Below, piece by piece: positions 11,305-55,401 of a stretch of 64,000 nucleotides of DNA (position 1 is its first letter; each line of letters opens with the position of its first letter). A program made the position numbers and the translations under genes. The stretch is from Candidatus Kerfeldbacteria bacterium. Lineage in GTDB: Bacteria > Patescibacteriota > Patescibacteriia > SBBC01 > CAIJZX01. The stretch is taken from positions 270,106 through 334,105 of the forward strand of contig CAVSWO010000002.1 in NCBI GenBank assembly GCA_963731735.1, read 5' to 3'. Below the pieces are notes generated by a model that was not told where the DNA came from, searched no databases, and saw only the letters and a program-made list of their open reading frames with translations.

Positions 11305-12126
11305 TTACAGCGGACTCCGAATGCTTTGGAGTTTCGGATTCGTCACTCGTGTGTACCGCTGGGTAGTCCGAATATTGTTATGTCCGAGCAGAACCTGCAC
11401 ATAGCGGATATCCACGCCGTTTTCGAGCAGGTGCGTCGCAAAGCTGTGTCGCAAGCTATGGAACGTGGCCGGTTTTTTGATATCCGCTTTGGCCAAGGCA
11501 TGTTCAAAAACTTTCTGGGCGGTTCGGGTCGTGAGCCTTCCACCCCAATCGCTGTGAAAAATAAAGTCTCCCTTATCTTTGCCGGAGACAAAACGCTTGA
11601 GCGCATCAATAAATTTATCAGGTAAAACACTGATCCGATCTTTTCGCCCTTTCGCCTGTTTCAGATGAATCGTTTTTTCGGCAAAATCCAGGTCTTGGAC
11701 TTTGAGGTTCACGACTTCGCTCACTCGTAATCCCGCGCCGTAGGCCAAGGCCAGGAGTAATTGGTGCTTCTGATTCTTGGTCTCGTCAAGCATTCGTCCA
11801 ATCTCTTCGCGCGATAAAACTATCGGCAGGCGCTGGCCACGCTTGGCGGTCTTTATTTCAAGCCGTGCCTCGTCCCGCACCACCTGGCGATAATAAAACT
11901 TTAGAGCACTTAAGCACAGATTCCGTGTTTGTGCCGACACGCCTTGCTGTTCCAACGACGCTAAAAATCGCCTGATCGTTTCCTCATTGATTGTGTCCGC
12001 ACGATTAGACACAAAAACGAAATACTCTCTTAAGAAGTGTAGGTAGATTTTCACGGTGCGGGGACTGTAGTTGCGTATACGAAGTTCGATCCCAGCCCGC
12101 TCCAATTCTGTTGTAATATTAAACAA
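11305..12126 (-). CDS. integron-integrase-like tyrosine recombinase (short, 273 aa)
   Basis: Catalytic residues are in LRVSE, HSLRHSFATHLL, LLGH and RYTRV. The N-terminal SAM-like domain is IntI-like (YSPRTVKIYLHFLREYFVF...FYYRQVV) and the C-terminal IRSPL is IntI-like. The gene is divergently placed next to the attI and cassette array. It lacks the roughly 35-aa IntI additional domain. Confidence 0.8.
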   Translation of the reverse strand: MFNITTELERAGIELRIRNYSPRTVKIYLHFLREYFVFVSNRADTINEETIRRFLASLEQQGVSAQTRNLCLSALKFYYRQVVRDEARLEIKTAKRGQRLPIVLSREEIGRMLDETKNQKHQLLLALAYGAGLRVSEVVNLKVQDLDFAEKTIHLKQAKGRKDRISVLPDKFIDALKRFVSGKDKGDFIFHSDWGGRLTTRTAQKVFEHALAKADIKKPATFHSLRHSFATHLLENGVDIRYVQVLLGHNNIRTTQRYTRVTNPKLQSIRSPL

Positions 12127-12200
12127 AACGGTGGCCCCTTTCCGCCACCAGCACTGTCTAATCCCAAACTAGCAAAAAGTCTTAAAATGAGCAATACTGG

Positions 12201-12241
12201 GGTTATTATCCGAACCAAGTTCGCATAATAACCAGTTGTAC
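12201..12241 (+). other. attI recombination site: palindrome GGTTATTATCCGAAC-CAA-GTTCGCATAATAACC followed by crossover core GTTGTAC
   Basis: The core GTTGTAC (12235-12241) is the exact complement of the first attC inverse core GTACAAC (12781-12787). It lies 75-115 bp upstream of the intI start. The same 52-bp sequence recurs at 52136-52187. Confidence 0.7.
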
Positions 12242-12334
12242 GAAAATTTGCCTCCCTATGTTGTAAGAAAAGCTAGGTCCGAGAGTATCGCTACTCCCGG
12301 ACCCATGTTATCGGAGATGATTCCTTGGAGCGCC

Positions 12335-12638
12335 CTAGACGAGAAGCTCGCTGGCCTGATCGCGGATCGTGTCCTCGATCTGACCCTTGAACATGCCCGC
12401 CAGCCAGGGGAGCTTGCCCGTGACAGTGACTTCTCGGTCACTCACGGTCAGCTGCCCCGAGACATCGAAGCCCATGGTACTGAAGCTGAACCTGGCACCG
12501 TTGTCATGCCAGCGCCTCCTCGAGGTTGCTGACCTGGTCACCATGGTCACGCTTGACGTTCGTCAGGAGCGTGCGAACTCGCTTGAGCGCTTCGGGCTTG
12601 CCGAGCCGATGAGGAATGGACACGCGAATGTCTGGCAT
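12335..12638 (-). pseudogene. cassette 1: PHA-granule-region/polyhydroxyalkanoic acid system family protein, frameshifted, inverted relative to the array
   Basis: MPDIRVSIPHRLGKPEALKRVRTLLTNVKRDHGDQVSNLEEA then a 1-nt insertion (gcgCtggcat) shifts the frame into WHDNGARFSFSTMGFDVSGQLTV...LPWLAGMFKGQIEDTIRDQASELLV. There is a GGAGG RBS 7 nt upstream. Family recognition is from memory of PF09650-like sequences. Confidence 0.55.
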
Positions 12639-12780
12639 CGCTCTACCTCCGAAAGGAGCAGTCAATTCACCATGAATTGACAAAGCAGGATAGCATAAGG
12701 ATTAGTTCGTGTCAAGAATGTCGGGTAACATGGAGACAACCACGCTTTTCTTTTACATATGCGGCGGTCGGCAAATCATC

Positions 12781-12913
12781 GTACAACAGCGCGTAGGCGG
12801 CTCGGGTTTCTGTGGCCGCCCGAAGGCCATCCCCTAGAAACCGCTCGCCTAAGTTCGCCGGTGATGGTACGATTGTATCACCGACGAACTTCGCCTACGC
12901 GCAATCGTTGTGT
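12781..12913 (+). repeat. attC site a (133 bp; R'' GTACAAC ... R' GTTGTGT)
   Basis: Imperfect palindrome with AAC-AGCGCGTAGGCG ... CGCCTACGCGCAATC-GTT. The central region holds two internal hairpins. Confidence 0.8.
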
Positions 12914-12965
12914 GAAATTTTTCCCGGGGCTACGGTATAGAATGATGCACTAAAGACCACCGTCA

Positions 12966-13922
12966 ATGAATACAATTTTAGACAGCGTTAAAGCGGTTAT
13001 TGTTAAATCAAAACACGTTAGAATAAATAAGGAGAGCCTCAAAGAGTTTTGTTTACAATTCAATGTAAACAAGAGCGTTCACTGGATGAATGGGTCTCCT
13101 TATAATTACTCAAAACTAGATGATCTGAAAAAACTGAATTATCTTTTTGTTTTCAATTCTATCAATTTCTGCTATTGGGGTACTCCAAAATGGACTGTAG
13201 AAAACAAGGGGAACAAATACGATGGTGCCTGGGCAATGATGGCGTCTTTAGGTAAAGCAATAGATGATAACATTCCCATTTTAGATGCGAAGTATCTTTC
13301 TACTTTAAGCGGAGACATTTTATCGAGAATTTTGCAGGGAAATGTTGCAATTCCCTTGTTCAAAGAGCGTCTACAAATACTGCATGAAAATGGAAATATA
13401 CTTGCAGAAAAATATAACGGGCAATTTTCGAAGTTATTACAAAAATCAAATCAAGACGCTTTACATATTTTAGAAATAATTACCACTGAATTCCCATCAT
13501 TTGATGATAGTGCGGAGTATGAAGGCCAAAAAGTGATGTTTCACAAGAGAGCTCAATTATTAATTGCTGATGTCTATAGAGCTTTTAACGGCAATGGATT
13601 CGGTGATATAAAGAACATTAACAATCTTTCTGCATTTGCCGATTACAAAATTCCACAAATCCTTAGAAAGCTAGGAGTTTTAGAATATACACCAGAATTA
13701 TCAGCAAAAATTGATAACAAGGTTCAAATTTCCCAAGGTAGCGATGAAGAGATTGAAATTCGCTCAAACATGATTTGGGCAGTTGAATTGATGAAAGAAG
13801 AATTGAAAACAAAAACTCCAAATATTACATCAATGGAAATTGATTCATATCTTTGGCTGTTAGGGCAAGACAAATCTCCTGATGATAAACCCTATCATTT
13901 AACTGAAACTATCTTTTATTAG
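12966..13922 (+). CDS. cassette 2: DUF2419/queuosine-salvage (Qng1-like) family protein
   Basis: 318 aa and AT-rich. It carries a HKRAQLLIADV motif and overall resembles the Q-salvage family from memory. It is bounded by attC a and attC b. Confidence 0.45.
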   Translation: MNTILDSVKAVIVKSKHVRINKESLKEFCLQFNVNKSVHWMNGSPYNYSKLDDLKKLNYLFVFNSINFCYWGTPKWTVENKGNKYDGAWAMMASLGKAIDDNIPILDAKYLSTLSGDILSRILQGNVAIPLFKERLQILHENGNILAEKYNGQFSKLLQKSNQDALHILEIITTEFPSFDDSAEYEGQKVMFHKRAQLLIADVYRAFNGNGFGDIKNINNLSAFADYKIPQILRKLGVLEYTPELSAKIDNKVQISQGSDEEIEIRSNMIWAVELMKEELKTKTPNITSMEIDSYLWLLGQDKSPDDKPYHLTETIFY

Positions 13923-13941
13923 TGGCCCCGAGAAAAACTAC

Positions 13942-13998
13942 ACACAACAGCGCGTATACGATATGCTTCGCACGATCGTATACGCACAAACGTTAGGC
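13942..13998 (+). repeat. attC site b (minimal, 57 bp; R'' ACACAAC ... R' GTTAGGC)
   Basis: ACACAAC-AGCGCG-TATACGAT-[12-nt loop]-ATCGTATAC-GCACAAAC-GTTAGGC. R'' is the reverse complement of the preceding R' GTTGTGT. Confidence 0.8.
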
Positions 13999-14030
13999 GC
14001 AACTGCCTATTAATTACTAAGGAAAAAACT

Positions 14031-14267
14031 ATGGCTAAACAATACGTTTGTACTAATTGTGGTTATACAGGAGCTCCAAAAAAGATTACCAAGGGAAGCA
14101 TTCTAATCGAGATTATCCTTTGGTTATTTTTGATAGTACCTGGGCTTATCTATTCTATCTGGAGATTAACCACAAAGTACGATGCTTGTCCCAAGTGCAA
14201 GAATCCAACAATGATCCCGGTTGATTCCCCAAAGGGACAAAAGTTAGTCGAGGAACACAAACAATAG
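14031..14267 (+). CDS. cassette 3: small membrane zinc-ribbon protein (CxxC...CxxC, 78 aa)
   Basis: CTNCGY and CPKC pairs flank a TM helix. It lies between attC b and attC c. Confidence 0.5.
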   Translation: MAKQYVCTNCGYTGAPKKITKGSILIEIILWLFLIVPGLIYSIWRLTTKYDACPKCKNPTMIPVDSPKGQKLVEEHKQ

Positions 14268-14276
14268 GCAGCAGCG

Positions 14277-14612
14277 CCTAACAGCGCGTATCTGAAATTA
14301 CCACCATGGAACTAAGTGATTTCATCAAACAGAGTGTTAGGGAAGTTATGAAAGGAATGTCGGAAGCCCAAACTAACACTCATAAGTTTGGGATTAACAA
14401 TGACAACGGAAATGGCATTGAGTTTGATATTGCCGTGACATCCGAGACATCAAAAACTGGTGGCGGCAAGGTATCTATATTAAAAGTAGTCGACATTGAT
14501 GGGAACATTAAGAAATCTGAGTCTCGGATTCATAGAATAAAATTCACACTTATCCCAAGAGGAAAAAGAAACCCAACAAGTTAATAACTTCAGATACGCG
14601 CAAACGTTGTAT
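14277..14612 (+). repeat. attC site c, 336 bp, enclosing a complete ORF (R'' GCCTAAC ... R' GTTGTAT)
   Basis: The L arms GTATCTGAA (14289-14297) and TTCAGATAC (14589-14597) are exact complements. They flank the ORF 14306-14584. R'' GCCTAAC is the reverse complement of attC b R' GTTAGGC. Confidence 0.7.
14306..14584 (+). CDS. hypothetical protein (92 aa) encoded inside the attC c palindrome
   Basis: AT-rich ORF that fills the loop between the paired L arms. The stop TAA abuts the 3' arm. Confidence 0.45.
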   Translation: MELSDFIKQSVREVMKGMSEAQTNTHKFGINNDNGNGIEFDIAVTSETSKTGGGKVSILKVVDIDGNIKKSESRIHRIKFTLIPRGKRNPTS

Positions 14613-14683
14613 GAAATATACTTTTCCTTTCCGCCTGACGGCTATCGCTTTTCCTACATGAGCAAATTTGATTTCGCCTAGAC

Positions 14684-15667
14684 ATGTCCATGCTACCAAA
14701 ATTTATACTATTCGGAACTGGAAATCCTGAAATCGAGGCGTCGATTCAGCCTGTACTTGGCCTTCGAGGATGGTCAAGTCTAAGTTCGAACGAAAAAGAA
14801 ATTGTTCGCCAACAGCTTGAAAATAGTGGTTGGCTTGGTGAATATTCTAGAGAAATTTTTCACACCATAGAACACCTAAATCATAAGTATTTACGGCTAC
14901 TGCCAGGTAAGCATCTTCACGCGATTGCGCCTAAAATTGATTATGGTCGTGGGTTTGGAAGCGGTGATGAATACGAAAGGATAAAAGCTGCTCTGATTGA
15001 TTTCCAACACATATTAGTACAAGAAAGGTCCGAGTCAGTTGTGTACTATATGCTTTCTTATTTTGCGAGTTTACACATTGACAATAATTACTATCAATGG
15101 GCGAAGCAAGCAAAAACCGCGAAAGAAAGGCGAGACAATCTGCAGAAAGCATTTGAAAAATTTGGCAGGCTTGCAAATTGTTTAAATCACATATTTGAAC
15201 AATTCTCAGTGAATGTAACCCTGACGAGAAATGGTCTTGTGCCAAGACAAGACGAAAAGATTACTGAGCTAATTTATGTGCCAACTTTGCAGATTCTTGC
15301 CGATCCCAAATGGGAAAATGTTAGTAAAGATTTAGGGGACATGTTTTCAGCCTATCGGGACGAGAATTACCCTGAAACAATTACTGCTGCCCATAGAGCA
15401 GTGCAACGCTTTTTGCAAATATTAGTTGGTGAAGAGGGTAAAAATGCTAAGGGAGAAGTTGGCAAATTGTTTAGTAAGGCAAAGACGGAAGGACTAATCC
15501 CAGTCAACCGATTTACCGAACCAATTATTTCAACGATCCAGGGGTTCATCGTTTCAGAGCGTTCAACAAAAAGCACAGCGAAACCGACGGTGTCTGATGC
15601 TGGGCCCACGGACGCACTGCTCGTCATGAATGTTGTAATGGTGCTTTTACAACATTGTTTGCAGTAA
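14684..15667 (+). CDS. cassette 5: hypothetical protein (327 aa), possible Abi-like/defence-type protein
   Basis: AT-rich ORF with no firm motif. The C-terminus has a weak resemblance to Abi_C-type abortive infection proteins. Confidence 0.4.
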   Translation: MSMLPKFILFGTGNPEIEASIQPVLGLRGWSSLSSNEKEIVRQQLENSGWLGEYSREIFHTIEHLNHKYLRLLPGKHLHAIAPKIDYGRGFGSGDEYERIKAALIDFQHILVQERSESVVYYMLSYFASLHIDNNYYQWAKQAKTAKERRDNLQKAFEKFGRLANCLNHIFEQFSVNVTLTRNGLVPRQDEKITELIYVPTLQILADPKWENVSKDLGDMFSAYRDENYPETITAAHRAVQRFLQILVGEEGKNAKGEVGKLFSKAKTEGLIPVNRFTEPIISTIQGFIVSERSTKSTAKPTVSDAGPTDALLVMNVVMVLLQHCLQ

Positions 15668-15754
15668 GAATCGCAGTTGATTATCAATATCAAACATCAA
15701 ATTTGCTCATTCAAAAAAGCGTCTGATACAATCAGGAAAGGAAAAGTATAAATC

Positions 15755-16503
15755 ATACAACAGCGGATATGAGACGGAGGAAATCGGGTTTGGTTCTCTC
15801 CAACCAAAACAAAGAACCCCTGTCGCGTTCCGGAGAGGAACTGGGGTTCGTGCGGCGACACGGGGTCGCAATAAGGAGCACGGGTCTCAGTCGCTAGACC
15901 TGCACGGTCTGCAACGTGAGCCGGTGCCGCATGATCACCGCGCGGCGAGAAGGCGGGTCGGTGACACAGAAGATCACCTGGCCGTCTTCCTCGATCACGC
16001 TCTCCAGCTCCATGCCGTTGAGAGGCGCCGGGTAAGACACCCCCGCAGAGATCTGGTAGAGAATGCCAGCCGCCTTCGGCCGCTCGGGGAACGGGAACTT
16101 CCGTTCACCAACTTGCAGGAAGCGGCACTCGAACGTGACCGACCCGGAGTAGTCGGTGACCGACGGGTCATTGATGCCCTTAGGCTTGGTCACGTCGAAG
16201 GTGTGATGCTCTTCCACCACCTTCACGTCGACAGGAAGAGCGGCCCAGTTCTTGAGCGTCTCGATGATCGGGTTCATTTGGTACCTCCCCTGAGTGTGTG
16301 GTCGCGTCAGAAAGCCGTGGTCACACACCAAGAGAAGTACTCCAGTAGAATGAACAACGGAAAAGCATAGCACTGTTACGCCCAAATGTCAATACCAAAA
16401 CCAAACCCGATTTCCTCCGTCCAAATTGCTGCTTCGCCTCGGCGGTGGTAATATTGTACCGCCGGAACGAAGCAGCAACTTCTCATATCCGCAAACGTTG
16501 TCC
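15755..16503 (+). repeat. attC site h, 749 bp, enclosing a reverse-oriented ORF (R'' ATACAAC ... R' GTTGTCC)
   Basis: Arms GGATATGAG/CTCATATCC plus a second perfect 23-bp arm pair ACGGAGGAAATCGGGTTTGGTT / AACCAAACCCGATTTCCTCCGTC flank 15800-16400. R'' is the complement of attC c R' GTTGTAT. Confidence 0.7.
15894..16277 (-). CDS. hypothetical protein (about 127 aa, high GC) inside attC h, opposite orientation
   Basis: ORF starting MNPIIETLKNW with a GGGGAGG RBS 8 nt upstream. There is no recognised domain. Confidence 0.45.
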   Translation of the reverse strand: MNPIIETLKNWAALPVDVKVVEEHHTFDVTKPKGINDPSVTDYSGSVTFECRFLQVGERKFPFPERPKAAGILYQISAGVSYPAPLNGMELESVIEEDGQVIFCVTDPPSRRAVIMRHRLTLQTVQV

Positions 16504-16590
16504 GACATACATTTTTATCCCCTTTCGTTCATTTCCCGCGCGGTTCTTTTGGGAGTATAATTAACTTGTTAACAATAACTAGGATTTTTT

Positions 16591-17352
16591 ATGCATAAAC
16601 GACAAGGTATTATTTGGGCTCCGGTCCTCATCATAATTGCAACGGTTGGGGTTGCTGGAATAGCGACTTACTTTTTAATACGTGCTGGCAATACCAATCC
16701 GTCCGAAAATGGCAACACGAATGTTGCGGTGGTAAATCAGGCGAACAACAACGCTACCGCAAACCTCAACACCAACGACGCTACAAACACGAACCAGGTA
16801 GTGAATAACAATGCCAGCGCGAACACGAATACAACAGTGAATACGAACACGGTGAGCAACACCAATGCCGCAATCGATCCCTATACCGGATGGGAAACAT
16901 TATTGAATGAGCCTTACGACGTGCAGTTCAGGTACCCAAACACCTACTTTGTCTCAAGTAATCATTACGGGGTCACGGACCCAGCCAAAGCCGAAGCGTT
17001 CTTTTTCCGAAAAACATCCACCAACTACAATGGTGTACCGACGCTGGATGTTTCGGCCAACCTTACGTTACCTGCTGGCCAGACCCTCAAACAGCTAGCT
17101 GAATCCATTTATAACAGTAATAAGGATAAAGACTACGTTACAACGGATCTGAGTGAAGTAACGTATGATGGAAATGCTGGTTACGCATTCGGGCTCAAAA
17201 CAGGCTATTCCGATCCGAATGGATATCAAGCACTCGATTCAGTTGGCGGACGAGTCGTAATTCTTCAGCACAACAGCAAAATCTTTCGGTTCTTGCAAAC
17301 AGGCGCTGATGCAACACTTGAAAGCATTCTGAACAGCATAGATTTTCAATAG
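16591..17352 (+). CDS. cassette 7: secreted/membrane-anchored protein with an N/T-rich linker (253 aa)
   Basis: N-terminal TM (IIWAPVLIIIATVGVAGIATYFLI), a low-complexity N/T-rich region, then a globular domain. It is a paralog of 19154-19798. Confidence 0.6.
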   Translation: MHKRQGIIWAPVLIIIATVGVAGIATYFLIRAGNTNPSENGNTNVAVVNQANNNATANLNTNDATNTNQVVNNNASANTNTTVNTNTVSNTNAAIDPYTGWETLLNEPYDVQFRYPNTYFVSSNHYGVTDPAKAEAFFFRKTSTNYNGVPTLDVSANLTLPAGQTLKQLAESIYNSNKDKDYVTTDLSEVTYDGNAGYAFGLKTGYSDPNGYQALDSVGGRVVILQHNSKIFRFLQTGADATLESILNSIDFQ

Positions 17353-17403
17353 CTATTGAGAGCCGCGCGGGAAATTCTCTTTAAGAGATAAAAATGTACG
17401 ATC

Positions 17404-17511
17404 GGACAACAGCGCGCATACGCCATCCTTCTCCCGCTTTGGCGCTACGGCTCCGCCGATATTCTAGCGCCACGCTCATTTCGGACGGCGTATGACGCGC
17501 AAACGTTGTCC
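17404..17511 (+). repeat. attC site d (108 bp; R'' GGACAAC ... R' GTTGTCC)
   Basis: GGACAAC-AGCGCG-CATACGCC ... GGCGTATGACGCGCAAAC-GTTGTCC. R'' complements attC h R'. Confidence 0.8.
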
Positions 17512-17583
17512 GACATATATTTTTTGGAAATTTCCCGCGCGGCTCTTTGGGAGTATAATGGGAGTGTTTAATTATCACGGAAT

Positions 17584-18234
17584 ATGACAACACGCAAACG
17601 ACTGTTTTTGATCACTATCGGTACCATCTTGCTTGTTATTGTCGTTTGGGTAGCGCTTCCGTTCAATTGGGCAATCATGACGACAAGCAAGGTTACCGCA
17701 CCGGCCGGGGGCGATTTTACGCTATCTATGGTGACTCATGCGGATCAGAAAGAGTCGGACTGCATGCGAACAAAAAGCATCCGAATTGCCACTGATTCAG
17801 TGGAGGGTCAAATAATTAAAGTTTACAACACCAATTGGGATGTAATAGTTCAAGACTTGATACTTCCTACATTTGGGTCTCCAATCGAACGAATAACCCA
17901 GGTCAAACAAGAAATGTCGCAGAGAGCCGTCGGGATCATATCATACGACTCTTGGAATTATATTTCATCGATTTGGGACGGAGACACGCCCCAGCGTCTC
18001 GGCGATAGCTGGCTTGAGCCAATTACTGGTTTTACATGTTGGGTTGGCCAAGCGTCAGATCTCGCGTGGCTAAAACTTCCAAGCCGCCTAGACTCGTATT
18101 GGGAAGTATTTCCGTCTACCCCTCCCGGCACATACAAACTAACCGTGACGGATCCTTTTGGAAAACCTCATGCTCTTTCACTCACGGTCACGAAGCCAAT
18201 TTCTGATAATGACTACAAATGGTCAATAAAATAG
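17584..18234 (+). CDS. cassette 8: membrane-anchored hypothetical protein (216 aa)
   Basis: N-terminal TM followed by a globular region. There is no motif. Confidence 0.5.
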   Translation: MTTRKRLFLITIGTILLVIVVWVALPFNWAIMTTSKVTAPAGGDFTLSMVTHADQKESDCMRTKSIRIATDSVEGQIIKVYNTNWDVIVQDLILPTFGSPIERITQVKQEMSQRAVGIISYDSWNYISSIWDGDTPQRLGDSWLEPITGFTCWVGQASDLAWLKLPSRLDSYWEVFPSTPPGTYKLTVTDPFGKPHALSLTVTKPISDNDYKWSIK

Positions 18235-18261
18235 TTGCGCAGGAAGTTTTTTTGAACTACC

Positions 18262-18328
18262 ATATACGGTCGGACAACAGCGCGTATGCGATATACTACG
18301 TACAATCGCATACGCGCAAACGTTGTAC
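18262..18328 (+). repeat. attC site e (minimal, 67 bp; R'' GGACAAC ... R' GTTGTAC)
   Basis: GGACAAC-AGCGCG-TATGCGAT-[12-nt loop]-ATCGCATAC-GCGCAAAC-GTTGTAC. Confidence 0.8.
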
Positions 18329-18345
18329 GAAATGCTTTAACTAAT

Positions 18346-18915
18346 ATGAAAACAACAATTATTGTAATGTACGGTCCGCCTGGTGTTGGCAAGTTTACAA
18401 TTGGCAAACAGCTTTCCAAGAAAACAGGTTTTCGTTTCTTCAATGGACATAGACTTGCCGATGTCGTACATAGTATTTTCGAATTTGGAACGAAAGAATT
18501 TATTGAAACAACAAATTTTCTTTGGCTAAATCTTTTTTCAAAACTAGTAAAAAGCCAACCTCGGGGCCTAATTATTAGTTTTGTCTATGGTGTGCAAACC
18601 CTCGAAGGCAAAAAGGATGATCTGTTTTGCAAAAAATTTATAGCTGTAGCCAAAAGAAACGATGCCAAGATCCACTTCATTAAACTCACCTGTTCTGATG
18701 ACAGGCTCTACAGACGTGTTCAAAATAAGTCAAGAAGAAGATATGGGAAATTGACATCGGCAAGTCTTCTGAAAAAAATCCGAAATAACTACAAGGTTGA
18801 TGAAGAAATTCCTTTTGTTAAAAGTATAGAGATTGATACAACTACTTATACGCCTAAACAAACGGCGGATCGAATTATTGCCAAATTAAACCTTGCCTCT
18901 TTAAAACGTCGTTAA
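18346..18915 (+). CDS. cassette 9: P-loop NTPase / small kinase-like protein
   Basis: Walker A GPPGVGKFT near the N-terminus and an adenylate/zeta-toxin-like kinase size of about 190 aa. The start was taken after the attC e R' site. Confidence 0.55.
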   Translation: MKTTIIVMYGPPGVGKFTIGKQLSKKTGFRFFNGHRLADVVHSIFEFGTKEFIETTNFLWLNLFSKLVKSQPRGLIISFVYGVQTLEGKKDDLFCKKFIAVAKRNDAKIHFIKLTCSDDRLYRRVQNKSRRRYGKLTSASLLKKIRNNYKVDEEIPFVKSIEIDTTTYTPKQTADRIIAKLNLASLKRR

Positions 18916-18922
18916 AGCACTC

Positions 18923-19061
18923 CGTACAACAGCGCGTAACCGACGCGGTTTCTGGCGACCGGCGGAGCCGTTCGCTTCCGAAACCGCTACATTTGCTGGT
19001 GTTGTCCGCTAAAGCGGAGTATTCTAACACCAGCAACGTCGGTTACGCGCAAACGTTGTCC
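18923..19061 (+). repeat. attC site f (139 bp; R'' GTACAAC ... R' GTTGTCC)
   Basis: A conserved frame. The central module CGGTTTCTGG...CGAAACCGCT plus TTGCTGGTGTT...AACACCAGCAA is shared with attC g. Confidence 0.8.
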
Positions 19062-19153
19062 GACATACATATTTATCTTATTGAATTGGTTTCCCGCGCG
19101 GCTCCTTCCAGAGTATAATAAGATTGTTTAAAATACTTAATTAAGTATATTTT

Positions 19154-19798
19154 ATGAAATACCGACAAGGTATCGTTTGGGCACCGGTGCTCATCATTAT
19201 CGGTGCAGTTGTGGTAGCAGGTTTTACAACCTTTTTCTTGATTCAGGCCAACCAATCCGACAATGAAAACGTGAATGTTGCGCTGGCAAATCAGGCGAAT
19301 AGCAATCTCAGCGTTAACACAAATACGAATGTTTCGACTGTCCCAACTGGATGGAAGGTGTTTACAAATGATTATGCAAAGTATTCTTTTCAGTACCCAA
19401 CAACACTTATAATCAGTGATTGCAGTAATAAATTAGGAAGTTACGTATTAGCTCCAGGGGGATCGTGCGAAAATGAAACATTTGGGCCAGGTTTTTCAGT
19501 TTTACTTCATTCAGAGCCAACATACAATGAAGATGAGACATACGAAGAAATTAAAAAGTTAATTACAAATCCGCAAACAAGCTCCGTGCCAATTGATGGT
19601 ATGCTTGGTCGTCGATTGCAAGGTGTTCAAAAAATAGAGGACCCAGTTTTTCCGGACCAAAAAGAGAAATACTCCGACTACGTTTTTGTTCAAGCCAGGG
19701 GCAACTTCTATACCATTGCAAGTGTTTCTTTGACATCGGAACCATTTCGGTATACTGACTTTGAGAATTTCCTTGCGACCTTTAAATTCACGAATTAG
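19154..19798 (+). CDS. cassette 10: secreted protein, paralog of the cassette 7 protein
   Basis: MKYRQGIVWAPVLIIIGAVVVAGFTTFFLIQAN parallels MHKRQGIIWAPVLIIIATVGVAGIATYFLIRAG. It shares the same N-rich linker. Confidence 0.6.
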   Translation: MKYRQGIVWAPVLIIIGAVVVAGFTTFFLIQANQSDNENVNVALANQANSNLSVNTNTNVSTVPTGWKVFTNDYAKYSFQYPTTLIISDCSNKLGSYVLAPGGSCENETFGPGFSVLLHSEPTYNEDETYEEIKKLITNPQTSSVPIDGMLGRRLQGVQKIEDPVFPDQKEKYSDYVFVQARGNFYTIASVSLTSEPFRYTDFENFLATFKFTN

Positions 19799-19905
19799 CT
19801 GTAAAGATAATTATCTAGTTTTTCGAAGATGGATTTACTTCAACTCTCTGTTTAGCTGCGAGTGAAATTCTCTTTTGAAGATAAAATGTACGATCGGACA
19901 ACAGC

Positions 19906-20067
19906 GCGTAGAGGAAATCTTTGGTTTTAGCAAGATTTCTGGTAATATCAATGCATTAGTAGCTCTTTTTGAGCCTATCGGCTTACCGCAAATCGGCTGT
20001 CCGCCCCGTGGTGAGCGAGTGTACCACAGTGCGGCCAGCCGACTTCCTCTACGCGCAAACGTTAGCT
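19906..20067 (+). repeat. attC site i (162 bp; R'' GGACAAC ... R' GTTAGCT)
   Basis: L arms GTAGAGGAA/TTCCTCTAC. The central module is nearly identical to that of attC j. Confidence 0.8.
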
Positions 20068-20183
20068 GACATATTCCTTTTCTTTTCCAGCTAACGCCGG
20101 TGCGGGTAAAAAATCTTTCAAATTTCTCTTTTAAGGTCAACGCTTCTTGCAATAATCTGGTTTATTCAATAACATAATAATAT

Positions 20184-20624
20184 ATGTCAATCGAGCACGG
20201 CGGCCCATCCCCTGAGGAGATGGGGTTAAGTCAAGAGACAACTGAATCAAAACTTCCACCCGAAGCATTGGATGCGATGACAGATTATTGGGAGGAACAA
20301 CAAACAAAGTTTATAGGACAGATGGCCGACGGATCCGGCAGAAATTTTGATGTCGATATATCGCGGACAAATGCCTATTTAGAAAAGATTGACCAGGCAG
20401 ATTATTTTACACCCGCCGAAGTTAAAAAGACCGTCGATGGCAAAGAAGTAACTTCTCCGGAACGTTCAGTATTTGATTTTTTTAAGAAAAAGCTCGCGGG
20501 CTTAGAATACGCCATTGAACAGGGAGATGACCTTAAGACTATTCAGGAATACGAGAAACAGGCAAAGCAGATGAGAATGGCAGTTGAGGCGCTGGAGAAA
20601 ATCCGACCCAAAGACAGTGAGTAG
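20184..20624 (+). CDS. cassette 11a: hypothetical acidic protein (146 aa)
   Basis: ORF with a plausible composition. No motif was recognised. Confidence 0.45.
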   Translation: MSIEHGGPSPEEMGLSQETTESKLPPEALDAMTDYWEEQQTKFIGQMADGSGRNFDVDISRTNAYLEKIDQADYFTPAEVKKTVDGKEVTSPERSVFDFFKKKLAGLEYAIEQGDDLKTIQEYEKQAKQMRMAVEALEKIRPKDSE

Positions 20625-20835
20625 CTTTATAGCAAAATGGCCGCCAGTGATAACTATTGCCTCTTTTGTTGGCTTGCTTATTCTGATGGCTGGCATCTTT
20701 GCTTGGGCAACAGGTACCAATTTGGGGTCGGTCACGAACGCAGTGGTTACATTGCTATCAATTGTTGGTCTCATAGTTCTTTTGGCGCTAACATTTGTTT
20801 CAAAAAACCCTAAAAAGCCAGACCAGAAGCAGTAG
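20617..20835 (+). CDS. cassette 11b: small two-TM membrane protein (start uncertain, GTG/TTG)
   Basis: Two hydrophobic helices (ITIASFVGLLILMAGIFAWA and AVVTLLSIVGLIVLLALTFV) and a lysine-rich tail. It overlaps the stop of 11a. Confidence 0.35.
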   Translation: MSSFIAKWPPVITIASFVGLLILMAGIFAWATGTNLGSVTNAVVTLLSIVGLIVLLALTFVSKNPKKPDQKQ

Positions 20836-20897
20836 AAAAATTCGAAAGTTTTTTACACGCCTTCTCTTAACAGAGAAGAAAAGAAAGGGAATACGAT

Positions 20898-21070
20898 CAG
20901 CTAACAGCGCGTAGAGGAAATATTTAGTTTCAGCAAGATTTCTGATAATATCAATATACTCGAAACTCTTTTGGAGCCTAATGACTTGCCACAAATCGGC
21001 TGTCCGCCCGGTGGTGAGCGAGTGTACCACAGTGCGGTCAGCCGACTTCCTCTACGCGCGAACGTTGTAC
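20898..21070 (+). repeat. attC site j (173 bp; R'' AGCTAAC ... R' GTTGTAC)
   Basis: R'' is the exact complement of attC i R' GTTAGCT. It shares a roughly 120-nt central module with attC i. Confidence 0.8.
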
Positions 21071-21093
21071 GAAATATAGTCATCCCCCCTACT

Positions 21094-21717
21094 TTGACCA
21101 ATTCAACAAAAATAAAGGCAATAGTATTTGATTTTGGCGATGTGATTTGCTTTTGGGATGATCAGATCTGGAGCGATGAGGAGTTGCGATTACGTGGAAT
21201 CAATGGAGAGGAGCTGAGGAACCTGATGTATGAATATATGCGTCATGGTGGCGAGGGAAAATATCATAGCTTCCTTGACTACTATGATACTCATCAGCAC
21301 GGTTCTAACATCGAAAGAAAAGTCATTGCTGGCTTGTACGAGGACCGGGAACAAACAGGTAAACTTGATCCCAAGATGGTCAATCTCATTACAAAACTAA
21401 AGTCTCGATACAAAATTGGGTTGCTTTCAAACTATACCAAAGGACTTGAAGACTTCTTGATAAACCGATTCAAGATTCACCACCTTTTTGACGCTGTAGT
21501 CAGCTCATACACGATTCGGATTAGAAAGCCCGCGATTGATGCGTATCATTATGTCGCAAAAGAATTATCAGAGCAGGTTGAGCATTGTCTTTTCGTCGAT
21601 GATAAGCAAAAAAACGTTGACGTAGCACTTGAGGCAGGCATGGAGGCAATCCTCTTTTCAGGTTTCGATGACCTTGTGAAAGAAATGGAGCAACAATTTG
21701 GTATCAGCATTTCCTAA
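21094..21717 (+). CDS. cassette 12: HAD-superfamily hydrolase
   Basis: Motif I FDFGDV, motif II LSNYTKG, a conserved K in IRKP and motif IV FVDDKQKNVD. There is no ATG after the attC, so a TTG start is assumed. Confidence 0.6.
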   Translation: MTNSTKIKAIVFDFGDVICFWDDQIWSDEELRLRGINGEELRNLMYEYMRHGGEGKYHSFLDYYDTHQHGSNIERKVIAGLYEDREQTGKLDPKMVNLITKLKSRYKIGLLSNYTKGLEDFLINRFKIHHLFDAVVSSYTIRIRKPAIDAYHYVAKELSEQVEHCLFVDDKQKNVDVALEAGMEAILFSGFDDLVKEMEQQFGISIS

Positions 21718-21759
21718 CTACAGCGCTTTCAGGAGGAGTTCGGGGGGATGACTAAACTC

Positions 21760-21902
21760 CGTACAACAGCGCGTAACCGCCGCGGTTTCTGGCGACCTGG
21801 CAAAGCCGCTCGCTTTCGAAACCGCTACATTTGCTGGTGTTTTCCGCTGGCGCGGAGTAGTGATAACACCAGCAACGTCGTATACGCGCAAACGTTAGGT
21901 GA
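21760..21902 (+). repeat. attC site g (143 bp; R'' GTACAAC ... R' GTTAGGT)
   Basis: R'' complements attC j R' GTTGTAC. The central module is homologous to that of attC f. Confidence 0.8.
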
Positions 21903-22017
21903 AATTTTCGAAACGAGATTTTTTTATTCGGAGGTTTTGAATTTGGCACTAAAAAGAGGGGCCCGCGGATACAGTATCCTTGGGCCCCGAATTTCGACTG
22001 ACTCACAGAGATTGCAG

Positions 22018-22329
22018 TTACTTCATGGGGTATTCACGAAGCAGCTGCTGATGAAGGAGATATGCAAGCTGCTGACGCCCCATCGATCCTGATGCTCTGG
22101 GCACTGCGAGGACGGGATGGTTGGAGCCACGTTTCAGCTTTGGATGCTCCAGCCCCCAGTACAACCCCAGAGCCGCGGGCCCCTTGACCTGCTTGATCCA
22201 CTTGTCGAGATGATGCTCGGCAACCCTCCGTGCTACCTCATCCGGTACCACAGGTTCTTCCCAGGTCTCACAGCACCGTTCCACGATGTCGTCGATGAGA
22301 AGCGGTCGAACCTTTTTCTCGTCTATCAT
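22018..22329 (-). CDS. cassette 13: hypothetical protein (103 aa), reverse orientation
   Basis: Only a protein-like ORF between attC g and the terminal attC remnant. Confidence 0.3.
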   Translation of the reverse strand: MIDEKKVRPLLIDDIVERCCETWEEPVVPDEVARRVAEHHLDKWIKQVKGPAALGLYWGLEHPKLKRGSNHPVLAVPRASGSMGRQQLAYLLHQQLLREYPMK

Positions 22330-22480
22330 GGCGACACCTCCCAGAAGTCCGTAGCGAAAAGAATGAACTGGTACAGATCTGTCAGAACAAAGAATAATTA
22401 GTCTATTTTCACAAATCTGTCAAGGGGAGCATGAACAAATTCAAAACCCTTTTACTTATAGGGCTCGTTTCGAAAAAATC

Positions 22481-22500
22481 ACCTAACAGCGCGTATCTGG
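22481..22500 (+). repeat. terminal attC remnant (5' half only: ACCTAAC-AGCGCG-TATCTGG)
   Basis: R'' ACCTAAC is the exact complement of attC g R' GTTAGGT. No matching 3' arm was found before nrnA. Confidence 0.6.
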
Positions 22501-22608
22501 CTCCGGCTTGACGAGTCGGCTAACTTTCGCTAAGCTGAGCGGCTTTATGTCCCGTTAGAGGTACCCGATAAAGACGGCCTCGATTCCTGGCGACATATTC
22601 TGCACTCT

Positions 22609-28219: not shown

Positions 28220-28589
28220 GCCTGGGCAGCGCCGACCTGCCACTGGCAGCTCGGCGAACATTCGGACGGCGTTCCACTTGTCCTCACTTCTGCCCGTCTC
28301 GCTTCGCTCGACCCATTTCGCTAGCGGCCGCTAGCTCAAAACACCTCGTGGTGACCCGCGAAGGACTCGAACCTTCAACCCACTGCTTAAGAGGCAGTTG
28401 CTCTGCCTGGGCAGCGCCGACCTGCCACTGGCAGCTCGGCGAACATTCGGACGGCGTTCCACTTGTCCTCACTTCTGCCCGTCTCGCTTCGCTCGACCCA
28501 TTTCGCTAGCGGCCGCTAGCTCAAAACACCTCGTGGTGACCCGCGAAGGACTCGAACCTTCAACCCACTGCTTAAGAGGCAGTTGCTCT
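28220..28589. repeat. two tandem 185-bp repeat units (plus a degraded third copy at 28060-28219), each containing the 3' two-thirds of tRNA-Lys and a 16-bp perfect palindrome GCTAGCGGCCGCTAGC
   Basis: The sequence 28220-28404 is repeated at 28405-28589. Each unit carries tggtgacccgcgaaggactcgaaccttcaacccactgcttaagaggcagttgctct, which is tRNA-Lys from the CCA end through the D-stem. Confidence 0.75.
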
Positions 28590-52135: not shown

Positions 52136-52187
52136 CGCAATACTGGGGTTATTATCCGAACCAAGTTCGCATAATAACCAGTTGTAC
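52136..52187 (+). other. second copy of the attI sequence (identical about 52 bp, including the palindrome and the GTTGTAC core)
   Basis: Exact repeat of 12191-12242. It is followed by a cassette cluster whose first attC inverse core is GTACAAC. Confidence 0.7.
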
Positions 52188-52244
52188 GAAATTGACTTTT
52201 TCCTTTAAACTGGAAATTAACTACTTAGTATATTCAACAAATCT

Positions 52245-52622
52245 GTGGATCAACTTCCTGTAGTTCAGGCTCAAAATAATAGCTCCAATTGGTTTAAACG
52301 CTGGTGGTGGATTTTCCCTGTATTTTCGGGGCTCGTTTATGGCCTGTGGCTGGTCCTCGCTAAGATGCTCTATTGGAACATTGCCAGAAAGTGGAATTTT
52401 CTCGCAGCTGGTTTGGCAATTTTCGTTGGGCTACTTTCTGTGCTCTTTTGGCGACGCGGCATTACGGGAAAAATTATAACCCTACTGACCATCACAACAA
52501 TTGGTTTTTTCTCGTACATAGTTATTGGAGCCGCCCGACCAGCTATCTATGAAAAAGCTTACACTTTCCATCTCCAGAAGTATTGTCGATTCAAACTTGT
52601 GCCCAAGATAATGATTGTATAG
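52245..52622 (+). CDS. cassette ORF: small membrane protein (125 aa)
   Basis: AT-rich with three hydrophobic helices. Confidence 0.45.
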   Translation: MDQLPVVQAQNNSSNWFKRWWWIFPVFSGLVYGLWLVLAKMLYWNIARKWNFLAAGLAIFVGLLSVLFWRRGITGKIITLLTITTIGFFSYIVIGAARPAIYEKAYTFHLQKYCRFKLVPKIMIV

Positions 52623-53130
52623 AAATATTTCAAGTCCTTCCGCGATAATTGAAAGTATGAAACCGTATGGTGATCCTCGACTTCAAGCTATAACATACAA
52701 TGTGCCGACGTCATCAACGTTTAATGTCAATTACTCCTGGGGCAGCCGGGAGGTAACGCGTTCAGGGTCGGTTCGACGAGTTTGTGTATCAAAAGAGTAC
52801 TACCAAACCAATAAACAAGAATACTACCTCTGGACAGGCATACAAGAGTATGAATCTGCGGCATCGTGTAGTTGCGTCGCTCAGCGATGTGCGAATACCA
52901 AGTATGTGATTGGTGAATACCCAGAAACCCCAACAGAAAATCCTACAGGAACAATTACGAAAACACCGCAGCCCGCCAAAGTAATAGACTCAAAACCCCC
53001 TTCGACACCAATTGGTGACCAAGGCCCAACGATCAACGATGTCCAAGTTAGCTACAATGCTACCCAGGCCACTATTTTATCGGTAACTGTAAGAAGCAGA
53101 CGGCATCGTAAACTACGGATCGAGTACTAA
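52615..53130 (+). CDS. cassette ORF: hypothetical protein (171 aa)
   Basis: AT-rich. It overlaps the upstream ORF by 8 nt, so this is a two-gene cassette. Confidence 0.45.
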   Translation: MYRNISSPSAIIESMKPYGDPRLQAITYNVPTSSTFNVNYSWGSREVTRSGSVRRVCVSKEYYQTNKQEYYLWTGIQEYESAASCSCVAQRCANTKYVIGEYPETPTENPTGTITKTPQPAKVIDSKPPSTPIGDQGPTINDVQVSYNATQATILSVTVRSRRHRKLRIEY

Positions 53131-53305
53131 CTATGGCTCATTTATTAGTAAAAGGAATACACTACTAACCATTCCATTAGCTTTGACGCATATCAAGGAC
53201 AAACGTATCACTACGCGATCCGCAGTTGCCTTCCTCTGACCTCCACAACATGCACCAGCACCGGCGATGGTGTTTTCAGTATCCAATAAAGGAAAAGCGA
53301 GCACC

Positions 53306-53405
53306 GTACAACAGCGCGTATACGCCATCCTTCTCTCGCTTAGGCGGTAATGATATTATACCGCCACGCTCGTTCCGGACGGCGTATGACGCGCGAACGT
53401 TAAGT
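53306..53405 (+). repeat. attC site k (100 bp; R'' GTACAAC ... R' GTTAAGT)
   Basis: GTACAAC-AGCGCG-TATACGCC ... GGCGTATGACGCGCGAAC-GTT. The central module is about 85% identical to attC d in array 1. Confidence 0.75.
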
Positions 53406-53467
53406 GAAATTGAGGATTTGTCCAAAAAATATATAAGGGCAAAAAATTATTTAATAACTAGATAAAC

Positions 53468-54234
53468 ATGAAAGACCATTACGATAGTTTTTATAAGAAA
53501 AGTTCAGAAAAATTTAAAAAATACGAGTTTCATGGACATGGCAAATTGGTTACTGGGGAAAAACCAAATTTTTTTGAGTATCTTAAAAAGTTTGGAAATA
53601 AAAATTTTAAAGTATTAGATTTAGGATGTGGCTCTGGCGAACTAACACTCAAACTTTCTCCGTTTTTTAAGGAAATTGTTGGCATAGACCCTTTTGATGA
53701 TTATATAAAATCGGCAGAAAATTTGAAAAGGACAATCAAAGTTGGAAATGTCATTTTTAAGGTAGCAGATGGAAAAAATTTACCTTTTGAAATACCGGCC
53801 GCCATTTTGATATTGTTTCAGCTCTAGAGGACCGCTTTCTGCCAACATTGATTTTATTAGAGAAAGTTTTCGTGTTTTAAAAAAGGGGGTGATAATTTAT
53901 CCAAGAAACTATTGGCGAAAAGGATAAAATTGAACTCAAAAAAATTTTTGGAAGAGGGCAAAATTATCCCAATAGTGAAAAAAACAAAAATTCGTAATCA
54001 GTAAAAGAATTATTAGCACAATCCGGAATGAAACTCGTTGAATCAAAATATTTTAAATTTTATCAAGCTTATTCATCAATCAACGATGTTGTAGTAATTC
54101 TTGAAAGAGCCCCCATAATTCCAGATTTTGATAAAACAAAAGACAAAGCACATCTTGAAGAAATTGATAGGAAACTTAATGGTAGTGGTATAAAATTAAG
54201 TAGTCACAGATTATTTTGGGTAGCTGAAAAATAA
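53468..54234 (+). pseudogene. class I SAM-dependent methyltransferase cassette gene disrupted by frameshifts
   Basis: The first frame gives VLDLGCGSGELT (motif I). The protein continues in other frames (…FRVLKKGG…, then MKLVESKYF…) across 53828-54234. Confidence 0.5.
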
Positions 54235-54317
54235 TTTTTTGCCCGATTTTAATAATGAAGAACAAATCCTCAAACTCAAGCCACGCTGCGCTCTCACTCC
54301 CTTCGTTCGTTCGGGGC

Positions 54318-54417
54318 GTATAACAAGGGATATACGGTTCAGCCCTCGGCTCGGGCTTCACCCAAATTTTTCTTCCACTTCGTTCCAGAAAAACTTCGTA
54401 TATCCCTAACGTTATCG
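54318..54417 (+). repeat. attC-like site l (100 bp; variant with AAGGGA in place of AGCGCG; R'' GTATAAC ... R' GTTATCG)
   Basis: Arms GGGATATACG/CGTATATCCC in an AAC...GTT frame. Its R'' does not complement the preceding R' GTTAAGT. Confidence 0.55.
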
Positions 54418-54480
54418 AAATGTTGCTATTGACGAATTAGTACCTTCGGTTCTAAGATCGCGTATTCGATCTTTCACAAC

Positions 54481-54809
54481 GAAATATTCTTAGGGGGCGT
54501 ACTAAAAAGGAGGTCATCGATGTTTCGTAGCTTTAAGGCCCTCATGGTAGGTACGTGGACTTGTGCACTTTCTTCTTGAATTTGGGGGTCTGCTGGAGTC
54601 CTGGGCTTAAGTTCCAAGCCAGTCAACACCTCGGCGATTCTCACTGGTACTTGTCTTGTGATCCTCGTCATTGTGGTTGTCATCATTGACTATTTGTAAC
54701 CGCCAGACGACATGGTGTGCAAAATGCAACCCATCAAGACCCCTGACCCCCTTCGTCCTTTTTCCGAGGAGATGGTAACGACATCATTCTCGCCCCCTAA
54801 GAATATTTT
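54481..54809 (+). repeat. cassette content flanked by 19-bp inverted repeats GAAATATTCTTAGGGGGCG / CGCCCCCTAAGAATATTT(T)C, with a strong-RBS 19-aa ORF (MFRSFKALMVGTWTCALSS) inside
   Basis: Near-perfect terminal IRs. AAAGGAGG lies 7 nt before the ATG at 54520. An antisense ORF 54474-54686 overlaps it. Confidence 0.4.
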
Positions 54810-54838
54810 CTCTATAAGAAACGCTGCGCAACACATCT

Positions 54839-54955
54839 GACAACAGCGCGTATACGAAATTGCGCGGGTGTCCGCTTCCCGCCTCCGTTTTACTTCGGCG
54901 GGCAAGCGCGGTAGTATACACCCGCGCAATGCGTATGACGCGCAAACGTTAGACG
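54839..54955 (+). repeat. attC site m (117 bp; R'' TGACAAC ... R' GTTAGAC)
   Basis: ACAAC-AGCGCG-TATACG ... CGTATGACGCGCAAAC-GTTAGAC. Confidence 0.75.
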
Positions 54956-54962
54956 CCATAAT

Positions 54963-55313
54963 ATGAAAAGAACAACTCTAACTTCTGTCATAGTTCTTAC
55001 ACTGATAATTTTGTTTTTGGCCGTTCCAAAACCGTACTCACTCTCAACAAACGTAAAGTCGTGCGATAAGAAAAATTCAGCTGAACAAAATGTAAATTCT
55101 GCACCAACGGATACCAATACATTTTTTAGGGATTATATACCTACACCATCTCTCATTTATGTGGATGAAAGCTCGGGGTGGTGTGCCGGGATAATTTATC
55201 CGACAAATAAGGAAAGAGAGTTAGATGCTTTTAATAACAGTTGCAACATGGTAACAAAAGGTTGGGATTGTTTAGGAATTAAATTTTCTAAAAAAGAATC
55301 AATTGCTTTATAG
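54963..55313 (+). CDS. cassette ORF: secreted hypothetical protein (116 aa)
   Basis: Signal-peptide-like N-terminus and AT-rich composition. It lies between attC m and attC o. Confidence 0.5.
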   Translation: MKRTTLTSVIVLTLIILFLAVPKPYSLSTNVKSCDKKNSAEQNVNSAPTDTNTFFRDYIPTPSLIYVDESSGWCAGIIYPTNKERELDAFNNSCNMVTKGWDCLGIKFSKKESIAL

Positions 55314-55328
55314 CTTACATATTACGAC

Positions 55329-55401
55329 GCCTAACAGCGCGTATACGCCCCGACCTTCGCCAAGGCTACGGCGGGCAGCATATGACGCGCAAACGTTAGA
55401 C
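55329..55401 (+). repeat. attC site o (73 bp; R'' GCCTAAC ... R' GTTAGAC)
   Basis: GCCTAAC-AGCGCG-TATACGCC ... GCATATGACGCGCAAAC-GTTAGAC. Its R'' differs by 1 nt from the complement of attC m R'. Confidence 0.75.

Follow-up and report, generated by a model that had tools for sequence, protein, structure and literature searches.

The accepted account of integrons is that gain of the I2 helix enabled the integrase IntI to act on folded single-stranded attC sites, with I2 docking the extrahelical bases of the hairpin and preventing a lethal second strand exchange (PMC7790495). A 64,000-nucleotide stretch of the genome of a Candidatus Kerfeldbacteria bacterium (contig CAVSWO010000002.1, positions 270,106 to 334,105), here called the window, raises the question of whether an integron can work without that helix. 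In it a tyrosine recombinase gene at 11305-12126 (minus strand, TTG start, 273 residues), encoding a protein without the IntI additional domain in which I2 lies, stands beside an array of gene cassettes closed by attC-like hairpins. The reading favoured here, and one we hold to be likely, is that the locus is a chromosomal integron-like cassette platform in Patescibacteria, run by an I2-less recombinase intermediate between Xer and IntI. The anatomy of the platform was observed directly and is described with high confidence.

The preliminary description of this DNA spoke of a 273-residue recombinase with all catalytic residues, and this is borne out by the open reading frame (ORF), by Pfam, which finds the phage-integrase domain (PF00589, E = 1e-46) together with a SAM-like N-terminal domain, and by an alignment of the window protein with 24 homologues in which R134, K159, H223, R226, H249 and Y258, the complete tyrosine-recombinase core R-K-H-R-H-Y, are invariant. 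Among NCBIfam models the protein passes NF040815 (recomb_XerA_Arch; 226.4 bits, cut-off 220), a model whose product name is 'site-specific tyrosine recombinase/integron integrase', and fails TIGR02249 for the integron integrase (219 bits against a cut-off of 265, the match falling in two stretches), NF011946 (150 against 435) and both TIGR02224 and TIGR02225 for XerC and XerD (189 against 335 and 188 against 330, respectively). In sequence comparison with solved structures Pyrococcus XerA (156 bits) and VchIntIA (154 bits) are the joint best matches, E. coli XerD reaching 90 bits, and the AlphaFold2 (AF2) model of the protein (predicted local distance difference test score 83.5) has VchIntIA as its top fold match in the PDB (E = 3e-17, 315 alignment columns for 273 residues) with XerA second. 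The C-terminus, ..IRSPL, is also like that of IntI. By sequence and modelled fold the enzyme belongs to a very large I2-less family lying between archaeal XerA and canonical IntI.

What distinguishes it from the integrases of canonical integrons is the absence of 42-43 residues. Between the motifs DRISVLP and HSLRH the window protein has 53 residues compared with 95 in IntI1 and 96 in Vibrio IntIA; the shortfall had been recognized previously, with the figures given at the time, about 45 against about 80 residues, now needing correction. A phmmer comparison matches the protein to VchIntIA (2a3v) in two pieces, query residues 16-191 with 14-193 and 202-273 with 246-317, the break falling between VchIntIA residues 193 and 246, and VchIntIA W157 is paired with a Lys. 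Aligned with MAFFT, IntI1 and Vibrio IntIA show insertions (about 29 and 11 residues, one of them ..THSTDPRSGVV..) that the window protein lacks, and there it runs gap-free alongside E. coli XerC and XerD and P. abyssi XerA. In the AF2 model residues 181-199 form a short beta-hairpin only, with no helix at the I2 position, and tblastn with the additional-domain segments alone was without a match in any frame, the search covering the window and some 90 related loci up to 20 kb long. Absence of the IntI additional domain, I2 helix included, is therefore confirmed, with phmmer, TIGR02249, MAFFT, tblastn and the AF2 model in agreement; the alignment to IntI and Xer proteins and the structure model, both suggested in the preliminary description, uphold its central claim. 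A frameshift or misalignment concealing the domain was considered and is ruled out by the continuous ORF, the equal lengths of the homologues and the empty tblastn searches with the domain segments. No second tyrosine recombinase, and so no canonical intI, was detected by tblastn in the 64-kb window.

The short form is shared by a family. Homologues run to thousands, with 2,775 representatives after 50% clustering (E < 1e-30), and the best 120 homologues have 266-304 residues and share 60-73% identity with the window protein, those with a named source being nearly all from metagenome-assembled genomes (MAGs) of Patescibacteria. Nearly all of the best 150 of the 2,775 representatives match in one stretch, and two with internal insertions that were inspected lack the IntI domain. 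A pattern scan with one genome per species returned at least 600 matches, and 597 of the 600 matches listed encode a relative. These data bear on the suggestion that the locus is a decayed integron, in which an IntI inactivated by loss of its domain sits beside a fossil array. A degenerate terminal attC and the partial conformity of a second array to the cassette boundary rule (see below) would be in keeping with decay, but the same length is found in thousands of homologues, the catalytic residues do not vary among the 25 aligned proteins, and the canonical domain is absent from the nearest 150 representatives, which points to a family state rather than a recent loss. With the boundary rule perfect in array 1 and contigs of relatives breaking at the cassette junction, decay is extremely improbable. 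One representative, P0144 (324 residues, 54% identity over the matched stretches), was examined as a possible carrier of the canonical domain and rejected, its insert lacking the IntI motif LP.AL..KYP. The insert of about 35 residues is unrelated and lies at the additional-domain position, a loop that seems to be insertion-prone.

Array 1 (12235-22560, plus strand) holds 11 cassettes, with a G|TT crossover at 12235 and a G+C content of 0.44 compared with 0.52-0.54 in the flanks. The layout is that of canonical integrons (IntI1, VchIntIA), the integrase gene being divergent from an adjoining attI, which is followed by mostly single-ORF cassettes each closed by an attC. Since the array is flanked by infB and rbfA on one side and by a DHH-family gene and another ORF on the other, it is chromosomal. 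Ten of its sites are complete and one is degenerate, and they show the attC core of inverted R''/R' boxes (RYYYAAC...GTTRRRY) and an imperfect L''/L' inverted repeat, forming hairpins that vary in length as in canonical integrons. The top-strand pattern is N4-AAC-A-GCGCGTA...TACGCGC-AAAC-GTT-N4, with N4AAC-GTTT-GCGCGT...ACGCGC-T-GTTN4 common to 14 sites, and the R' after each site belongs to the next cassette. In all 11 cassettes of array 1 the first seven nucleotides are the exact reverse complement of the cassette's own R'' box, the figure for non-cognate pairs being about 11% by hand count. This is the classical signature of cassette insertion at G|TT, shared with canonical integrons, and the textbook attC insertion scars reported earlier are indeed there.

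Cassette boundaries of this kind could also be read as those of tandem elements integrated by ordinary duplex or cruciform recombination through two sequential strand exchanges. An enzyme without I2 would suit such a reaction, as would an attI built like a classical core site of two arms with a 6-nucleotide central region between them. The sites of the array tell against it, every one being a long, site-specific imperfect palindrome of 57 to 749 nucleotides, a structure superfluous to duplex recombination. At each of the ten sites tested, single-strand folding surpassed that of shuffled controls (z from -2.3 to -9.8), and the distal stems are specific to each site, with a mean complementarity of 3.6 for cognate against -1.5 for non-cognate arms. 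In addition, R'' co-varies with the start of its own cassette, as if R'' and R' pair in an excised folded cassette, and the central region is 3 nucleotides shorter on one arm, such that duplex half-sites would not be equivalent. A duplex reaction is for these reasons a distinctly unlikely account of the arrays.

The hairpins depart from canonical attC sites in a way that parallels the enzyme. Canonical attC sites have extrahelical bases on the R''-L'' arm, a conserved G in L'' and a T 6-8 nucleotides further on, the first of which directs strand choice (PMC2727003). In the window sites the R''-L'' arm is fully paired in every fold in which the R and L stems form, and the canonical extrahelical bases are thus absent. 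Instead the R'-L' arm is longer by 3 nucleotides in its spacer, the bottom strand reading AAC-GTTT-stem on one side and stem-T-GTT on the other; this produces a conserved asymmetric bulge of GTTT opposite T, with the remainder of the spacer (GC/GC) paired and with one further bulged base on the R'-L' arm in five sites. The G immediately 3' of the R' AAC is kept, as in canonical sites. The sequences suggest that attC DNA without the marks that I2 reads and a protein without I2 changed together. Removal of the extrahelical bases has been shown to leave attC sites able to recombine, and an unpaired spacer can by itself impose strand choice (PMC2727003).

The attI_1 region extends from the recombinase start codon to the first cassette (12127-12234). 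On the bottom strand it reads ..ACAAC, TGGTTA, TTATGCGAAC, an inverted arm and AGTATTGC, a layout kept upstream of homologues in other genomes. Within it lies a 29-nucleotide palindrome of perfect geometry, TTATTATCCGAAC-CAA-GTTCGCATAATAA (12203-12231), whose right arm is the L box of attI and which is present twice in the window compared with a chance expectation of none. Of its 12 positions, 10 agree between the L arm and the XerC arm of E. coli dif, a likeness that is not significant alone (10 matches in the window against 5.7 expected). Both the palindrome and the dif-like arm set this attI apart from those of canonical integrons. A weak sigma-70-like promoter match at 12182-12209 (plus strand), a consensus match only, is directed into the array and is a possible cassette promoter (Pc).

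A block of 55 nucleotides at 12191-12245 (plus strand), comprising the attI core and the first 11 nucleotides of the first cassette, is identical to 52137-52191. Here an identical attI core (attI_2, 52137-52180, plus strand) lies 77 nucleotides past the gyrA stop codon with no recombinase gene adjoining it, and heads array 2 (52181-55401, plus strand, G+C content 0.41) with attC sites at 53306-53405, 54318-54417, 54838-54954 and 55329-55401. The first cassette of array 2 conforms to the boundary rule and the later ones do so in part only. The window therefore contains two identical attI cores 40 kb apart in direct orientation and one recombinase gene. Arrays without an adjacent integrase gene occur beside complete ones in canonical integron genomes too, with the difference that the integrase-less array of the window has an attI of its own. 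Either an integrase has been lost at 52137 or the attI module has been duplicated. In one relative, L091, the recombinase gene lies between attI and gyrA, with gyrA abutting it.

The arrangement recurs in other genomes. Wherever upstream sequence exists, Patescibacteria homologues have an attI 90-150 nucleotides before the start codon, with ..AAC|TCGTTATTATGCGAAC.. kept; on the bottom strand the relatives' sites read ..AAC | T(C/A)N5 | TAT(G/A)CGAA, often followed by the inverted arm. The exact attC motif of the window has almost no matches in 80 related loci because the L-box sequence is lineage-specific, and relatives were examined with a geometry-based attC scanner that recovers all window sites against a background of 2-5 hits per 64 kb of shuffled sequence. 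About 15 of 18 related Patescibacteria loci with adequate flank have the integrase, the conserved attI and attC sites of the same geometry, the loci with expected-strand sites upstream of the gene being L004, L005, L010, L012, L013, L018, L021, L024, L046, L086, L087, L089, L090, L092 and L093. Over the 18 regions 47 scanner hits fell on the expected strand and 5 on the other, symmetric or canonical spacer geometries remaining at background. The boundary rule from attI to first attC is exact in L086, L089 and L092 (two steps each in the latter two), L093 and L005, and holds with one mismatch in L087 and L090. The contigs L001, L011 and L017 begin within 8 nucleotides of a cassette junction, as assemblers produce when the first cassette varies within a population. 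In L008 the junction is present and the scanner detected no attC. The cassette genes of relatives include restriction-modification pairs, HEPN_AbiU2, Fic, SduA_C and a NACHT protein. The preliminary description had offered two alternatives, attC recognition without the hallmark domain and a co-opted Xer-like enzyme, and with an I2-less family adjoining attI and hairpin-bounded cassettes in many Patescibacteria genomes these merge into one.

That cross-genome association also bears on whether the arrays are served by a canonical IntI with I2 whose gene lies elsewhere in the genome, the short recombinase being an unrelated neighbour. The GyrA of the window places it near Kerfeldbacteria and has a 100% identical match on a contig of 822,872 bp. 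With the window covering 64 kb of about 823 kb there is room for such a gene, and arrays without a neighbouring integrase (CALINs, clusters of attC sites lacking integron-integrases) are common in canonical systems (PMC9024848). Against this stand the recurrence of the divergent gene-attI-array arrangement in the relatives, the absence of additional-domain sequence from all of the roughly 90 loci, attC sites without the R''-L'' extrahelical bases that a canonical IntI reads, and the lack of any integron reported for this phylum in the integron surveys searched. A hidden IntI is thus very unlikely.

The strongest competing account is that the enzyme is a housekeeping Xer of the 'Cand' subgroup acting on a dif-like palindrome, with cassettes exploiting it in the manner of integrative mobile elements exploiting Xer (IMEX) and cassette handling being a side activity. 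In single-recombinase Xer systems such as XerS, dif is kept beside the gene, as the palindrome is here. A Xer role would also be in line with the passing of the NF040815 XerA equivalog cut-off (226 bits against 220) and with divergence only slightly faster than that of GyrA, identities to the same relatives being 73, 67, 70 and 65% for the recombinase and 80, 82, 79 and 76% for GyrA; these two observations together fit a housekeeping function. The dif-like L arm points the same way, as does the finding that two close relatives, L088 and L091, carry the palindrome without the AAC cassette junction. The 2021 classification of tyrosine recombinases moreover presumes that its 'Cand' subgroup of Xer-related recombinases replaces Xer in candidate phyla (PMC8138268). 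On the other side, a dif site should be unique, whereas the window has two identical sites, directly repeated and both followed by an array; if the two were competent as duplexes, recombination between them would delete the intervening 40 kb. The neighbourhood of the recombinase gene is not conserved among close relatives, some genomes of the wider family have 2-3 copies (L038, L059, L070), and the likeness to the dif arm falls short of significance by itself. A primarily housekeeping enzyme is on this evidence unlikely, a dual role in Xer recombination and cassette handling being possible.

The XerA cut-off, the GyrA-like divergence, and the junction-less palindromes of L088 and L091 also count against a dedicated cassette platform, and further points weigh on that side. 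The case for activity is built from sequence and genomic association. The scanner imposes the very geometry that is reported for relatives, with geometry-independent discovery confined to the window sites, and a canonical IntI might lie in the part of the genome beyond the 64 kb of the window. The prevailing model has I2 essential for integron recombination (PMC7790495), a conclusion attributed to Messier and Roy (2001) as cited in PMC9668308. In L088 and L091 it is CATATATC that precedes the attI palindrome in place of the ..AAC junction, which may be the empty or ancestral state of the site, and L091 has one attC-like hairpin 2 kb further upstream.

If the integron-like platform is accepted, a mechanism can be proposed in which we infer the enzyme of the window to be the catalyst, its attC substrate to be single-stranded and, on a particular strand, to undergo a single strand exchange. 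Single-gene cassettes would be inserted one by one at the G|TT of duplex attI, with the recombinase gene transcribed away from attI, and the same enzyme would probably act in trans on the second attI and its array 40 kb off. Two monomers would bind attI at the R box (..AAC/GTT..) and the L arm TTATGCGAAC, with the 6-nucleotide central region between them and with the inverted arm and the AGTATTGC motif as possible accessory sites. Two further monomers would bind the folded single-strand attC at its R and L stems, the central region being 3 nucleotides longer on the R'-L' arm, and one strand would be exchanged at the border of AAC and the central region. The bulged asymmetric central region, instead of extrahelical bases read by I2, may set strand choice and block the second exchange, with the junction then presumably resolved by replication, akin to XerCD integration of a folded CTX-phi single strand. 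In the CTX-phi hairpin the bulged central region permits one strand exchange only, and replication completes the reaction. Integration of folded CTX-phi DNA through a single strand exchange is the work of XerCD, which likewise lacks I2 (PMC7790495). CTX-phi and IMEX share with the window an I2-less recombinase and a folded single-stranded hairpin, the parallel being one of inferred mechanism only. They differ in that the window has promoter-less single-gene cassettes stacked at a dedicated site by the recombinase gene rather than phages at dif.

The position of the enzyme among known recombinases is in keeping with its intermediate character. A neighbour-joining tree (41 sequences, 270 columns) pairs IntI1 and IntIA with 100% support and places both among I2-less proteins, the IntI and I2-less group standing apart from archaeal XerA (76-82% support) and from XerC/D (100%), with support of less than 10% for the branching within the group. 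As the I2-less family is large and broad, the simpler reading is that I2 is primitively absent rather than lost in it. Archaeal XerA (NF040815) and the 'Cand' subgroup (PMC8138268) match it in length and architecture and likewise have no insertion, XerA structures coming second among the sequence and fold matches taken together. XerA differs in that the window enzyme has a bacterial host, groups with IntI and the I2-less proteins, adjoins cassette arrays and has its presumed target twice in 64 kb; for XerA and the 'Cand' subgroup no cassette association was reported in the literature searched. It has been noted for the integron-like subgroup that the integron insertion is 'not fully conserved' (PMC8138268), and the paper on archaeal integrons stressed that archaeal IntIs have the domain.

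More broadly, I2-less IntI-like recombinases may run hairpin-bounded arrays across Patescibacteria and probably also in Bacillota, Bacteroidota and Spirochaetota, where surveys list few or no integrons, a generalization that is tentative and at present rather doubtful. Full-text literature searches turned up neither integrons in Patescibacteria or the Candidate Phyla Radiation nor integron-like arrays run by I2-less recombinases, and the text of the IntegronFinder 2.0 paper does not mention Patescibacteria (PMC9024848). Judging from the integrase definition of IntegronFinder, surveys that require the additional domain would call such systems orphan attC clusters or miss them. If the generalization is true, single-strand attC recombination needs no I2 and may predate it, and canonical integrons would be a single derived offshoot within a much larger, older class of such platforms, most of which IntegronFinder-type definitions miss. 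A system with neither I2 nor extrahelical bases and yet with precise cassette boundaries recurring across genomes would make the origin of integrons directly testable. It would also mean that a device dedicated to gene capture may exist in the tiny genomes of candidate-phyla bacteria, the arrays of relatives carrying restriction-modification and other defence-type genes.

Beyond the close relatives, Desulfitobacterium sp. Sab5 (L039, 9671-20804; NZ_CP172056.1, near 2.39 Mb) and Flavobacterium difficile (L055, 9707-20810) encode N-terminally extended relatives of 371-385 residues without the additional domain, with arrays of 7-13 hairpin sites downstream on the same strand and of the design ..TAAC-GTYY-stem...stem-T-GTTA... 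The boundary rule holds at 2 of 6 steps in L039 by hand count, and the two loci may be integron-like systems in phyla with few reported integrons. Two or three I2-less relatives lie within 10 kb of one another in L038, L059 and L070, which come from an Undinarchaeales archaeon, a Clostridia MAG and Sphingomonas populi. Among plasmids, tblastn (E <= 1e-20) found only short rhizobial and Acinetobacter recombinases and no IntI1. The recombinase gene of L024 (Gracilibacteria) has 11 in-frame stops under table 11, with an attC array of the same geometry upstream; recoding of UGA is known for Gracilibacteria and fits these stops.

The individual sites of array 1, all on the plus strand, range widely in length. 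The shortest are attC 2 (13942-13998, z -3.3) and attC 6 (18272-18328, z -5.3), each of 57 nucleotides, followed by attC 5 (17404-17511, 108 nucleotides, z -7.3), attC 1 (12781-12913, a 133-nucleotide hairpin, z -7.4), attC 7 (18924-19061, 138 nucleotides, z -9.8) and attC 10 (21761-21900, 140 nucleotides, z -5.2). attC 8 (19896-20067) and attC 9 (20899-21070) are both 172 nucleotides long and 85% identical. Two larger sites have an ORF in the loop, that of attC 3 (14276-14612, 337 nucleotides) at 14306-14584 (plus strand, 92 residues) and that of attC 4 (15755-16503, 749 nucleotides) at 15894-16385 (minus strand, 163 residues), the inner stem of attC 4 being 23 perfect nucleotides (15773-15795 with 16399-16421). 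Two possibilities are that the genes are nested within an attC and that cassettes have entered its loop. The degenerate terminal site (22481-22560), with R''-L'' intact and L'-R' decayed, ends the array before the DHH/DHHA1 gene.

The cassettes mostly encode products of unknown function, together with a queuosine-salvage protein, a small AAA kinase-like protein and a HAD hydrolase. The first cassette (12235-12907) has a high G+C content and small ORFs only, the likeliest being on the minus strand at 12335-12550 and 12504-12683, with a good promoter match at 12715-12687 facing them, and is reminiscent of the reverse-oriented self-expressed cassettes, such as toxin-antitoxin pairs, of chromosomal integrons. 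The products of the cassettes at 16591-17352 and 19154-19798 are paralogous, each having an N-terminal membrane anchor and Asn-rich linkers. The attC at 17404-17511 is much like that at 53306-53405 in array 2, and duplication or exchange of cassettes, or of their sites, has taken place between the two arrays. Rfam finds only tRNAs in the window, with no model covering the attC-like sites. Within the tRNA cluster a weak, shortened second tRNA-Lys(CTT) at 28349-28422 (33.8 bits, model positions 10-63 only) adjoins a full copy and may be its decayed duplicate.

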